Origin: a virus
Length of the DNA: 18,393 nucleotides
UHGV virus genome: UHGV-1280364
Direction: 5' to 3' (one strand)
Below are positions 2,144-17,817 of this stretch, piece by piece (position 1 is the stretch's first letter; every line of letters starts with the position of its first letter). A model generated the notes under the pieces. The model did no database searches. It saw only the letters and a list, made by a program, of their open reading frames with translations, and was not told the origin of the DNA. The position numbers and the translations under genes were made by a program.

Positions 2144-2743
2144 GTGATTGAGATAGGCGTTATGGCCATCCTGAATCAAGAGCCAGGAAAAATTGAAAAC
2201 GTTTTTTCTGACATATCAACATCTATCGAGCGTTCAATTTCAGACTTTGATCGCAGTCATAGCGGCTCTTTGTCTAAAAAACAGGCTTCTGAAGCTCTTA
2301 GCAAGATCTACTGCGTTATGTCACCTGTAGAGGAAGTTTGCAAAAAGTACATTACATTCATTGACATATTAAGTAATGGTACGGAAGAAGATATTTCCTC
2401 ACTTGATATTCAACATGACGATGTAGATATGTTGAACGATCAAATATCTAAGCTTGATTATGGTATCGCGAAACTGTTGTATACCTTCTTCATCGCTGAG
2501 AACAGCGATGCGTGGAAGCCCCATATGTCAACTCTTACAACAATGAAAAACCACTCAATAAATACTTTTATAGAATACAAAAGGCTAACTATGGGGCTTG
2601 TGACGCTAGCAATGCAGCACATACCACTATCATATGCTGAACCTGAAGAGTTCACTGAAGAAGAGTTGGCTTCATTCAAGAAATCAGTTGAAGATTCACA
2701 TAAAAGATTTGGCATGGAAGCACCAAAATGGAAAACCGCATAA
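2144..2743 (+). CDS. Hypothetical acidic protein (199 aa), candidate partner or antitoxin of the downstream YafO-like gene
   Basis: Complete ORF 42 nt downstream of mnt in AT-rich DNA. GTG start at 2144 with AAGG upstream; alternative ATG at 2162. Its stop overlaps the start of the next gene (ATGGAAAACCGCATAA). No family recognised. Confidence 0.55.
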   Translation: MIEIGVMAILNQEPGKIENVFSDISTSIERSISDFDRSHSGSLSKKQASEALSKIYCVMSPVEEVCKKYITFIDILSNGTEEDISSLDIQHDDVDMLNDQISKLDYGIAKLLYTFFIAENSDAWKPHMSTLTTMKNHSINTFIEYKRLTMGLVTLAMQHIPLSYAEPEEFTEEELASFKKSVEDSHKRFGMEAPKWKTA

Positions 2744-2820
2744 GCATTGTTGTAGATGCAGCGGCTGGACCATTAGAACAATACTTTGCTTATGCGGTTT
2801 TTCATTGTTGTAAGAGTTGA
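2728..2820 (+). pseudogene. Truncated 5' copy of the YafO-like gene (30 codons, ends in junction sequence)
   Basis: ATG at 2728 encodes MENRISIVVDAAAGPLEQYFA, identical to the first 21 residues of the complete ORF at 2961, then diverges into the junction and terminates at 2820. Confidence 0.6.
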
Positions 2821-2823
2821 CAT

Positions 2824-15763: not shown

Positions 15764-16212
15764 ATCAACCTACACCACAAGGAATTGAGTAACTGGAATA
15801 GTCGGGTTGCGCAGCCGACTCCGGGCAATGCATACACATCATCAGCGCATCAGCCAGGTTAGGAGATGGAATACCGAGCTTCTGCTTCATTTCGACCTTA
15901 GTCATAAGCTCCAGCTTCCCGTTGTGCGCCGGATACCCGGACGAAACGTTGAGCCTCAATAATCTGCTCACGCATATCCTGCGTTGCTGACCAGGCATTA
16001 TCAAAGTTGCACAGCACCTTGCGATGCCAGTCAGTCATCTTTTTTTCTGCCATATCAACCTACACCACAAGGAATTGAGTAACTGGAATAGTCGGGTTGC
16101 GCAGCCGACTCCGGGCAATGCATACACATCATCAGCGCATCAGCCAGGTTAGGAGATGGAATACCGAGCTTCTGCTTCATTTCGACCTTAGTCATAAGCT
16201 CCAGCTTCCCGT
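15633..16212. repeat. Perfect 290-bp tandem duplication spanning the terminase stop and portal start (15633-15922 and 15923-16212)
   Basis: Direct comparison shows the two copies are identical, with 3-nt microhomology (tgt) at the junction. Each copy carries the portal 5' end (131 nt), the intergenic base and the terminase 3' end. Confidence 0.92.
15765..16004 (-). pseudogene. Chimeric ORF created by the 290-bp duplication (out-of-frame portal 5' sequence fused to a second copy of the terminase C-terminus)
   Basis: The last 51 residues (GKLELMTKVEM...SIPCGVG) are identical to the C-terminus of the 377-aa terminase ORF. The N-terminal 28 residues come from the duplicated portal start read out of frame. 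Confidence 0.7.
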
Positions 16213-17817
16213 TGTTATTGAATTTGCGCTGAATCTGCGTCAGTTCTGCAAACAGCTTCTCCAGCATCTTCTCGCCTATCGCTTCTTTGTCGAAACTCAG
16301 CATGTCGTCGGGGTCTGCATACTCACCGTGGACAACCGCCCGATATGTCAGATACAGCCTGTCAGCCAGCGCGTAATAGAATTGCGCTCGCTTATTACGG
16401 AACACATCGCCAATAGTGCGAACGTTGTCGCCCTGCACGACTTCATCAGCCCATGCTCCGGCCTGATATGGTGCATCTTCATCGAATGGCGATTCGCTGC
16501 CCTTGAACATCGTGGCGGTGATTTTCTTGCCGGAGAACGCTTCCGTTGTCTGTCTGCGTAGCCCGGCACCAACACCATCACCATCCCACAGGTAATGGTC
16601 AGCGCCGTCTTCAATCGCCAGCGAAGTAGCCCAGTCAGCACCCTCGTTGATGTCCATCAGCAGACCTTCGGCAATGCGCTTAACTACCGAACCGTGACGC
16701 GATGCATAACCTTTAGCATCTGGTCCTGTATCTGACGGGTCATGCGCAGAGACAACAGCGCCTTTCGCTTTCCATCCGAGTTTCTTGTGCGCATCGGTAG
16801 CAGCTTCAAGCCATTCACGTTTGATGATTGCCATATCACTTGCGCTCACTGGCTCACCAAGCCAGATGTGACGATACAGTGTCGGGTTTCTGCGTTTACA
16901 CTCTTCCATCTCCAGACGGAGAACTTCAGGAAAGTGCGGGTTGTCGGTGTAGTTCACCGTCAGCAGGCAAATATCATCGGGAGGATTTACAACGAATCGC
17001 TGATAGGTATCGTCGAGTATGTTCTTCGGGTTAAAGCTCACCCATATTTCAGAGAACGGCTTGCGGATGGTTGGTATCAGGATATCCCATGATTCCTTCG
17101 TTACCGCTTCCGCTTCCTCCACCCAGCAGATATCAATGCCTTCGAGCGATTTAATCTTCGTCGGGTTGTTTTTGATGCCGTAGAACATGAACTCACTGGC
17201 TCACCAAGCCAGATGTGACGATACAGTGTCGGGTTTCTGCGTTTACACTCTTCCATCTCCAGACGGAGAACTTCAGGAAAGTGCGGGTTGTCGGTGTAGT
17301 TCACCGTCAGCAGGCAAATATCATCGGGAGGATTTACAACGAATCGCTGATAGGTATCGTCGAGTATGTTCTTCGGGTTAAAGCTCACCCATATTTCAGA
17401 GAACGGCTTGCGGATGGTTGGTATCAGGATATCCCATGATTCCTTCGTTACCGCTTCCGCTTCCTCCACCCAGCAGATATCAATGCCTTCGAGCGATTTA
17501 ATCTTCGTCGGGTTGTTTTTGATGCCGTAGAACATGAACTCAGCATTCGTTCCGAGATGACGAATCATGGAACGCTGAATTTCAAACTCAGCCGTATACC
17601 CTTCACGCTCTATGGTGTCTTCAAGCAGCCGGATTACCGAATCGCTGATACTGTTTTGCAGTTCACGAGCGCAGAGAATACGCACTGGCTGCCGACGCGC
17701 CGCTTCAACAAGCAGCCTCGCAATTGCCCATGACTTACCGCTACCTCGACCGCCTTTGGCGACTTTGTAGCGATGCGCCTCAATGAACGGTTCAAAGATA
17801 GGATTAATCGAGGTCAT
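16055..17817 (-). pseudogene. Terminase large subunit, interrupted by a frameshifting 347-bp internal tandem duplication
   Basis: Walker A motif in the N-terminal ORF ([16 protein letters not shown]). The two track ORFs (17101-17817 and 16055-17188) share a duplicated 115-residue segment. Removing one 347-bp copy gives a single 1416-nt ORF (471 aa), close to the Sf6 gp2 length I recall (470 aa). Its start overlaps the small-subunit stop as ATGA. Confidence 0.85.
16845..17538. repeat. Perfect 347-bp tandem duplication inside the terminase large subunit gene (16845-17191 and 17192-17538)
   Basis: Copies are identical on direct comparison, with 4-nt microhomology (ctca) at the junction. 347 is not a multiple of 3, so it shifts the frame. 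Confidence 0.92.

Follow-up and report, generated by a model that had tools for sequence, protein, structure and literature searches.

Genes and duplicated segments in the window

The stretch of DNA analysed here (the window, 18,393 nt) belongs to a P22-like E. coli prophage of the CUS-3/Sf6/HK620 type, of which it covers the late-gene and immI region. It carries three head-to-tail duplications, which were recovered by repeat search, by TRF and by direct comparison of the copies (Table 1); their periods are 233, 290 and 347 nt. An initial annotation of the sequence had proposed three tandem duplications with short microhomology, the left one with a complex inverted junction and the other two with simple head-to-tail joins. 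The duplications are confirmed, and their positions and junction types had all been given correctly. Junction bases excepted, the copies are identical in all three cases, and exact repeats of 200–347 nt cannot arise by chance.

Table 1. Positions of genes, duplicated segments and junction features in the window.
Feature	Position	Strand	Length	Remarks
199-aa ORF	2144..2743	+	199 aa	Intact; function unassigned (phrog_18235)
Donor of 36-nt inverted insert	2517..2552		36 nt	Inside the 199-aa ORF
Left duplication, copy 1	2590..2789		200 nt	Native position; 3'-terminal 154 nt of the 199-aa ORF, 5'-terminal 62 nt of the YafO-family toxin gene
Orphan ORF made by left duplication	2728..2820	+		20 aa of YafO N-terminus and 10 junction-encoded aa, then stop
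Donor of 15-nt inverted insert	2732..2746		15 nt
Left junction filler	2790..2822		33 nt	Two templated inverted inserts (greedy decomposition)
Left duplication, copy 2	2823..3022		200 nt	Opens with TATGGGGCT (9 nt), the microhomology of the proposed last switch
YafO-family toxin gene	2961..3380	+	139 aa	Intact; PF13957
Portal gene	13565..15763	-	732 aa	Intact
Middle duplication, copy 1	15625..15914		290 nt	Orphan 3' 150 nt of the large terminase gene and the real portal start
Site A, middle event	15625..15635		11 nt	CTTCCCACTGT
Middle duplication, copy 2	15915..16204		290 nt	Real 3' end of the large terminase gene and an orphan portal start
Large terminase, C-terminal ORF	16055..17188	-	377 aa	Part of the ATPase domain and the nuclease domain, in native frame to the native stop
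Site B microhomology, middle event	16205..16215		11 nt	CTTCCCGTTGT
Right duplication, copy 1	16845..17191		347 nt	Inside the large terminase gene
Large terminase, N-terminal fragment	17101..17817	-		Native to ...HIWLGEPVS, then 29 out-of-frame aa and stop
Right duplication, copy 2	17192..17538		347 nt	Identical to copy 1
Sf6-type small terminase-like gene	17814..18236	-		Intact

Two of the three duplications, the left and the middle, span gene boundaries and leave every gene whole. The 199-aa ORF and the YafO gene overlap by 16 nt in all relatives; in the window this native overlap is gone and the YafO gene lies 217 nt downstream of the stop codon of the ORF. The middle duplication adds an orphan portal start in its second copy, which opens a 51-aa ORF made up of 46 portal residues and 5 junction-encoded ones. 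No record was found of the aberrant ORFs that the duplications create.

The right duplication has a different outcome. Its 347 nt are not a multiple of three, so the large terminase gene is frameshifted and split. The N-terminal fragment spans the whole Terminase_3 ATPase profile and the C-terminal ORF holds the nuclease domain with part of the ATPase domain. Judged from this gene structure, the prophage is predicted to be one that cannot package DNA, because the gene is split, unless the repeat collapses by homologous recombination, which would restore the 471-aa terminase.

Sibling sequences and searches for the junctions

Between 2993 and 18393, and with the three insertions set aside, the window matches sibling sequences that have a full-length terminase gene base for base. 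The three re-copied pieces are the sole differences, and no further private changes were found in this interval relative to the siblings. The contig L034 (SRR2298102) is 100% identical to window 2993–14700. L003 (SRR2298124), an independent read assembly, served as a second comparison. When 2790–3022, 15636–15925 and 17196–17542 are excised in silico, the window from 7973 to its end (9,784 nt) becomes an exact substring of L003. In 1–2789 the differences from the nearest relative, L022, are allelic only. The exact portal and scaffold proteins are on record in three Logan assemblies only, and a search of the literature found no mention of the runs SRR2298102, SRR2298124 and SRR2298207.

Related prophage loci totalling 555,312 nt contain no tandem duplication of this size class. 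The sole tandem array in them has a 56-nt period and occurs in two genomes. Across 5,426 complete E. coli genomes, 578 contain a native 60-mer that served as a control and none contains the junction 60–85-mers. There was no match to the junctions in 50,697 phage records, and the exact junction patterns were found neither in IMG/VR (all three), nor in GTDB genomes (middle and right), nor in JGI metagenomes (left and right). The conservation in related phages or prophages that would mark an evolved or programmed tandem repeat was not found. By these sequence comparisons, the duplications are private to the window sequence and are not a feature of P22-like phages.

Are any of the junctions present in reads? 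The Logan contigs are assembled at k=31, with all 31-mers distinct and singleton k-mers dropped. L034 ends exactly k-1 = 30 nt ahead of the breakpoint between 2789 and 2790, and is the one contig of the collection in which the YafO gene is cut at this point. Since this is the position at which a contig would end on meeting the left breakpoint, one contig end (chance estimate ~0.004) suggests that the raw reads of SRR2298102 contain the left junction. No record was found of the 47-aa product predicted for a 190-nt unitig of the left duplication. L003 is continuous at the middle and at the right site, which shows that neither of these two junctions is fixed in a sibling run. A 698-aa portal fragment, one of the products looked for at the de Bruijn contig ends predicted for the middle and right junctions, also gave no record.

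Two other candidates for read support were rejected. Matches to terminase fragments of 377 and 272 aa come from unrelated samples at ~97% identity and were put down to selection, since searches with partial genes favour contig edges. The contig L004 ends 6 nt from site B of the middle event. However, many unrelated assemblies end 41–83 codons ahead of the terminase stop, natural mosaic boundaries lie close by (16042, 16111 and 16350) and L004 is unbroken at site A. For these reasons its end was not taken as support.

Junction anatomy and the origin of the duplications

At the right duplication the motif CTCA recurs at 16845, 17192 and 17539 (the third repeat being 17539–17542), with an imperfect match of 6/8. 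At the middle duplication, sites A and B agree at 9/11 positions and share an exact 3' TGT. The two middle copies differ solely at 15631–15632 (AC) vs 15921–15922 (GT), within this 11-nt imperfect microhomology, and the junction itself (15915–15925) carries the site-B version followed by site-A sequence. The baseline for such matches was a set of 200,000 random jumps of 200–350 nt in the native sequence. Measured against it, the exact match is 3 nt at the middle junction (p=0.057) and 4 nt at the right junction (p=0.019), and the imperfect scores are 7 (p=0.004) and 5 (p=0.035), respectively. Taken each alone, the exact microhomology at these two junctions is only modestly above chance.

The left junction is more elaborate. 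Its two copies differ at a single position (2599 T vs 2832 G), and the filler between them is fully accounted for by two inverted copies, both of sequence no more than 275 nt away, and one untemplated base. Window 2787–2801 is the reverse complement of native 2732–2746 (15 nt), and window 2796–2831 is the perfect reverse complement of 2517–2552 (36 nt). The untemplated base is the G at 2832, which is T in both candidate templates and in all ~27 relatives. Every alignment to the relatives runs to 2789 and picks up again at 2823. The overlaps at this junction measure 3, 6 and 9 nt.

What process would leave junctions of this kind? We infer that each duplication is probably a copying error by polymerase template switching, and a private, very recent and non-functional lesion. 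The growing strand would leave its template, re-anneal 233–347 nt upstream at a few matching bases and copy the stretch again. The middle event would need a single backward jump, with CTTCCCGTTGT paired against CTTCCCACTGT, and the right event a single backward jump at CTCA. On the left, forward synthesis would proceed up to 2789. A first switch would fold back to the opposite strand at TGC and copy 12 nt past the 3-nt overlap, a second would engage another inverted template at GGTTTT and copy 30 further nt, and a third would rejoin the forward template at TATGGGGCT and misincorporate one base (the G at 2832).

The re-copied DNA is contiguous and parental, with no foreign DNA, and its excision restores the sibling sequence exactly. 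Breakpoint microhomology is above chance, and the left junction contains inverted insertions templated by nearby sequence. These are the marks of the template-switch class. Indeed, the proposal of replication slippage or template switching made in the initial annotation is supported by the junction anatomy. Its further suggestion, that the left event might have a separate cause, is not needed; all three events fit one mechanism class, with three switches on the left and one at each of the others. The absence of divergence between copies, together with the absence of any other background change, implies that the events would be very recent. The parental sites share only 3–11 nt, which does not fit RecA-dependent unequal crossing-over or transposon target duplication. 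No long flanking repeats in the parent, IS elements or Ns were found at the duplications, and no mobile element lies between the copies. The predicted folding of the six breakpoint regions falls inside the background distribution of the window, with no stalling hairpin or unusual fold.

A second question is where the polymerase was at work. A burst inside a cell and an amplified or low-input library are about equally probable. In the cell, error-prone phage or prophage replication would have been followed by a single-molecule bottleneck at lysogenisation. Against this, three events in 15 kb with 0 base substitutions in 15.4 kb is far above any cellular background rate, so a special burst or a single-molecule bottleneck must be assumed. 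One specific version can be offered tentatively, namely that low-processivity replication with template switching affected the phage genome alone, in a single in vivo burst, perhaps during lytic or abortive replication, and that the single-molecule bottleneck of lysogenisation fixed the damaged genome. On this version the events would form a natural bacterial 'shower' of the MMBIR-like kind, and sister samples of the strain would carry differing junction sets. More generally, an origin in the cell would make the window a natural case in which template-switch rearrangements cluster in a bacterial prophage, and would illustrate how packaging can be lost in one step with every other gene left whole. 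An origin in the tube would instead flag an untrustworthy structure, and the broken terminase gene and orphan ORFs should then not be annotated as biology. With either origin the duplications would be no new genetic element or system, only mutational or technical damage.

Perhaps no such DNA molecule ever existed, and an assembler, scaffolder or gap-closer left overlapping contig ends unmerged or went round a cycle of the graph one time too many. Assemblies are known to contain false tandem duplications of this kind at contig joins. Three of them in 18 kb would be in keeping with a systematic fault, two of the duplications are missing from the sibling assembly L003 and the source assembly is absent from the collections searched. 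However, the window contains no N characters or gap marks, and overlaps of 3–11 nt are far under the k or minimum overlap of any assembler. It is also beyond an assembler to invent the two inverted templated inserts and the untemplated base of the left junction, and the k=31 assembly of SRR2298102 breaks at the predicted left-junction branch. The systematic assembly error raised in the initial annotation is therefore improbable.

Much the same grounds tell against deliberate manipulation, another early suggestion, in which the duplications were written into a real prophage sequence by editing or simulation. The un-duplicated sequence is public in read assemblies and the window departs from it only by three insertions, the periods form a regular series (233/290/347) and the source record is absent from every collection searched. 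Yet simple copy-paste would yield no microhomology, switches or contig break. The junctions have microhomology above chance, the left one combines three switches with a base found in neither template, and the end of L034 implies that this junction is in public raw reads. We consider editing very improbable.

Gradual decay of a defective prophage, by three independent events over evolutionary time, is just as improbable. A broken large terminase gene is typical of defective prophages. However, the copies show zero divergence, all other genes are intact and no other substitutions, indels or IS elements separate the window from intact siblings over 15.4 kb. Moreover, RecA recombination destabilises tandem repeats of 200–350 nt, which would not persist. 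The decaying prophage of the initial annotation is thus unsupported, since 2993–18393 shows no further sign of decay beyond the insertions.

The least probable reading is a selected or programmed change, either an on/off switch of the terminase, which recombination between the 347-nt copies would precisely reverse, or a loss of coupling between the YafO toxin gene and its upstream partner now that the 16-nt overlap is gone; two of the three events do spare all genes, but so would ~16% of random duplication triples at least twice (an estimate from gene density), not one of the 578+ genomes with the module has the junctions, and there is no conserved breakpoint motif or apparent targeting mechanism.

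Comparison with known systems

Template switching, the preferred explanation, can be set beside several known sources of duplications. The false duplications produced by assembly software resemble those of the window in that near-identical tandem copies are absent from related genomes. They differ in that the window has no gap or contig join and its microhomology is too short for software joins. In addition, its left junction contains new templated sequence and coincides with a graph branch in an independent read assembly.

In classical studies of E. coli, Lovett and others reportedly established that RecA-independent slipped-strand misalignment generates tandem duplications between short direct repeats. 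The window events are similar in being head-to-tail, bounded by short direct repeats and formed by jumps of a few hundred nt, and their junctions retain the donor version of the imperfect repeat. However, the repeats in the window are only 3–4 nt exact (9/11 and 6/8 imperfect), lengths at which the slipped-strand frequencies measured in vivo are extremely low. Three events in one 15-kb stretch are also not expected from background misalignment.

Chimeras formed during MDA arise when a displaced 3' end re-primes at 2–21 nt of complementarity, with nearby templates preferred, at ~1 chimera per 22 kb of product (Lasken and Stockwell, 2007; PMC1855051). The window junctions have complementarity in this range, and the short inverted pieces of the left junction resemble such chimeras. 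Among MDA chimeras, however, 85% are inverted with deletions and direct joins <10 kb apart account for 11/475 (Lasken and Stockwell, 2007). The window does not share this predominance of inverted joins with deletion. It has two simple duplications and one that is direct in net effect, so that the outcome is three direct duplications at consensus level. The mismatch with the two clean direct duplications weakens the case for an origin in the tube.

The last comparison is with stressed E. coli, for which Lin et al. (2011; PMC3161906) describe FoSTeS/MMBIR-type switching with microhomology junctions and short inverted templated segments. Several changes occur together there, in 'bursts or showers' within one cell lineage. 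Those events are kb- to Mb-scale amplifications and inversions obtained under lac selection, whereas the window events are 233–347 nt and unselected. As far as is visible they are confined to 15 kb of prophage, and their in vivo origin is only a candidate one. Nevertheless, the events of Lin et al. (2011) and those of the window have these features in common: microhomology, complex junctions with inverted templated pieces and several changes arising together.

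The duplications and their junctions

The initial annotation described three tandem duplications in this window, and repeat finding combined with direct comparison of the copies bears out all three (see the table). Repeats this long cannot have arisen by chance, and 555 kb of related loci contain no comparable tandem duplication. The sole tandem repeat in those loci is a perfect array with a 56-nt period, found in two genomes. The periods of the duplications (233, 290, and 347 nt) form an arithmetic series with a step of 57, each being 2 mod 3. No explanation for the series was found and it is probably a coincidence.

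Features of the window and of related loci (L-numbers)
Feature	Position	Size	Remarks
Left duplication	2590-2789 and 2823-3022	200 nt each (varies with assignment of microhomology), one difference	33-nt filler between copies; period 233
Middle duplication	15625-15914 and 15915-16204	290 nt each	Two bases differ, both within junction microhomology
Right duplication	16845-17191 and 17192-17538	347 nt each	Copies identical
56-nt-period array	L012 4698-4916; L030 19827-20045; L015 18551-18734; L029 19825-20008		3' of endosialidase tailspike gene
199-aa ORF, moron block		199 aa	phrog_18235, function unknown; no Pfam or PADLOC match
YafO-family toxin gene, moron block			16-nt overlap with 199-aa ORF in every relative
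109-aa ORF, moron block		109 aa	phrog_5962
Terminase ORF 1		238 aa	Native to ...HIWLGEPVS, complete ATPase profile, then 29 out-of-frame residues
Terminase ORF 2		377 aa	Native frame; remainder of ATPase domain and nuclease domain

At the middle junction, the parental downstream site is CTTCCCGTTGT followed by TATTG, the upstream site is CTTCCCACTGT followed by GCGCC, and the window has CTTCCCGTTGT followed by GCGCC. Therefore, a 3' end with the downstream version annealed to the upstream site and was then extended. In this pairing 9/11 bases match, the final three exactly. The right junction sites (tgaaCTCA/gcatt and tgcgCTCA/ctggc) share four exact bases and 6/8 in total. Compared with 200,000 random jumps of 200-350 nt within the restored sequence (the window minus the three extra pieces), the imperfect-match score gives p=0.004 for the middle and p=0.035 for the right junction, and the exact microhomology length gives p=0.057 and p=0.019, respectively.

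The left junction decomposes fully into four segments. Forward sequence runs up to 2789, then 2787-2801 is the reverse complement of 2732-2746 (3-nt overlap, TGC), 2796-2831 is the reverse complement of 2517-2552 (6-nt overlap, GGTTTT), and forward sequence resumes from 2590 (9-nt overlap, TATGGGGCT). The G at 2832 is encoded by neither template, and every relative has T there. The pattern is that of serial template switching in which a base was misincorporated at the final switch. The earlier suggestion that the left event may have a cause of its own is not needed: one class of mechanism fits all three, and the left event merely made three switches. The breakpoints are free of long flanking repeats, mobile elements, Ns and unusual DNA folds.

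Siblings, databases and read assemblies

Alignments of every relative to the window split precisely at the duplication boundaries. The same allele is carried by two public read assemblies, the Logan contigs L003 (SRR2298124) and L034 (SRR2298102). L003 has an intact 471-aa terminase with the portal gene directly after it, and deleting 2790-3022, 15636-15925, and 17196-17542 makes the window from 7973 to its end (9,784 nt) an exact substring of this contig. L034 matches window 2993-14700 with zero mismatches. Therefore, over 15.4 kb the window and its siblings differ only by the three re-copied pieces. There is no divergence between the copies of any duplication. By these comparisons, the three duplications are private to the window and recent.

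Junction-centred 60-85-mers have zero matches in 5,426 complete E. coli genomes and in 50,697 phage records; as a positive control, a native 60-mer of the same gene matched 578 of the E. coli genomes at the same threshold. Exact patterns of all three junctions are absent from IMG/VR, those of the middle and right junctions from GTDB species genomes, and those of the left and right junctions from JGI metagenomes. The aberrant ORFs made by the duplications are absent from a 15-billion-protein collection. The exact portal and scaffold alleles of the window occur only in SRR2298124, SRR2298207, and SRR2298102, which are runs within one SRA accession block, and have no NCBI protein record.

Logan contigs are assembled with k=31, dropping k-mers seen once and simplifying the graph conservatively, and every 31-mer in a contig set is distinct (PMC12424806). 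A fixed tandem duplication therefore breaks contigs at its boundaries and never lies inside one. L003 spans both right-hand sites without a break, so the middle and right junctions are not fixed alleles in SRR2298124. L034 ends at window 2993 (native 2760), exactly 30 nt (k-1) short of the 2789/2790 breakpoint. This end is expected if the 30-mer at 2760-2789 has two successors in the SRR2298102 reads, the native G and the filler T. Among all other contigs of the collection, none ends at this codon of the widespread YafO gene, and the left-junction sequence is in no known genome searched (complete E. coli genomes and phage records). Based on six contig ends, twelve predicted positions and 18 kb, the chance of such a coincidence is estimated at ~0.004. 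This evidence is indirect but independent: it suggests that molecules with the left junction were sequenced, and it counts against both a pure software artefact and planted edits, which had been proposed.

The end of another contig, L004 (SRR2298207), was considered as read support for the middle junction and rejected, because a natural zone of contig breaks and mosaic boundaries near the terminase 3' end explains the match. At window ~16040-16350, contigs of many unrelated public assemblies end 41-83 codons before the large terminase stop (21 share one end codon), and homology of complete genomes to the window has its limits at 16042, 16111 or 16350. Mosaic boundaries of P22-like prophages naturally fall in this zone. 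Run-specific contig ends in the three sibling runs (7973, 12696, 14700, and 16209) are accounted for by no repeat within the window; the libraries may be uneven or amplified, or the co-resident prophages may differ.

Gene content and consequences

The window covers the late genes and the immI region of a P22-like (Lederbergvirus-type) E. coli prophage. The minus strand carries, in order, an Sf6-type small terminase-like gene, a Terminase_3 (PBSX-family) large terminase, the P22 portal, scaffold and coat genes, gp4/gp10/gp26-type head-completion and needle genes and the ejection-protein genes gp7/gp20/gp16. The plus strand carries mnt, a 199-aa ORF of unknown function, a YafO-family toxin gene and a 109-aa ORF; Arc, Ant and the start of the tailspike gene lie at the left end. 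The closest phages are CUS-3, Kapi1, Huey, Sf101, and HK620 (92-97% identity across mosaic parts), and the same modules are present in hundreds of complete E. coli genomes.

A three-gene "moron" block occupies 2144-3732, between gp16 and mnt. Its 199-aa protein sits where an antitoxin is expected, yet resembles none; the pair with YafO is widespread, listed in 618 collection blocks. The tail-needle gene (317 aa, PF16532) has a degenerate 42-nt periodicity at 8883-9006 (three copies, 68% matches), consistent with coiled-coil repeats of the needle protein. In one relative (L009 18087-18812, GCA_964037035.1), a 194-aa NUMOD4/HNH_3 endonuclease gene separates the gp10-type gene from a 34-aa gp10-like fragment, an arrangement that resembles the insertion of a homing endonuclease.

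The right duplication, at 347 nt not a multiple of three, splits the large terminase into two ORFs. From general knowledge of terminases, DNA packaging is expected to fail in such a prophage; the exact gene would return if the two copies recombined. The middle duplication straddles the terminase-stop/portal-start boundary. Copy 1 supplies the real portal start and copy 2 the real terminase 3' end, so both genes are intact; only a 51-aa orphan ORF is added. The left duplication straddles the boundary of the 199-aa ORF and the YafO gene, both intact, turning their native 16-nt overlap into a 217-nt spacer and creating a 30-aa orphan ORF. By our own estimate, with genes of ~1 kb about one-quarter of duplications of this size span a gene boundary, so gene sparing in two of three is not significant (~0.16).

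Setting and class of the events

Three events in 15 kb with zero substitutions in 15.4 kb is a density far above background mutation, and it requires some burst and then a single-molecule bottleneck. Where might this have taken place? Template switching inside a cell is quite possible: error-prone phage or prophage replication could generate the joins and one damaged genome would then lysogenise. Bursts of template-switch rearrangements in stressed E. coli are documented (PMC3161906). Switching in an amplified library is just as plausible, with strand-displacing amplification producing the joins. Such amplification forms a chimera about every 22 kb, primed by 2-21 nt of complementarity (PMC1855051). 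However, inversions make up 85% of these chimeras and direct joins between nearby sites are rare (PMC1855051), a poor fit to the two clean direct duplications found here. That software created the duplications is very unlikely, and any other explanation is less probable still.

The significance would be greater if reads of an unamplified isolate showed that all three are clonal and restricted to the prophage. None of the events has the features of homologous unequal crossing-over, transposon target duplication or an evolved phage repeat, and multiple displacement amplification (MDA) chimeras match them only in part. Structurally, the events fit microhomology-mediated template-switch duplication: they show direct re-copying, microhomology and, at the left junction, templated inverted inserts, and they arose de novo with respect to the parent sequence. 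Lesions or artefacts of this kind are already known, and the duplications are no new element.
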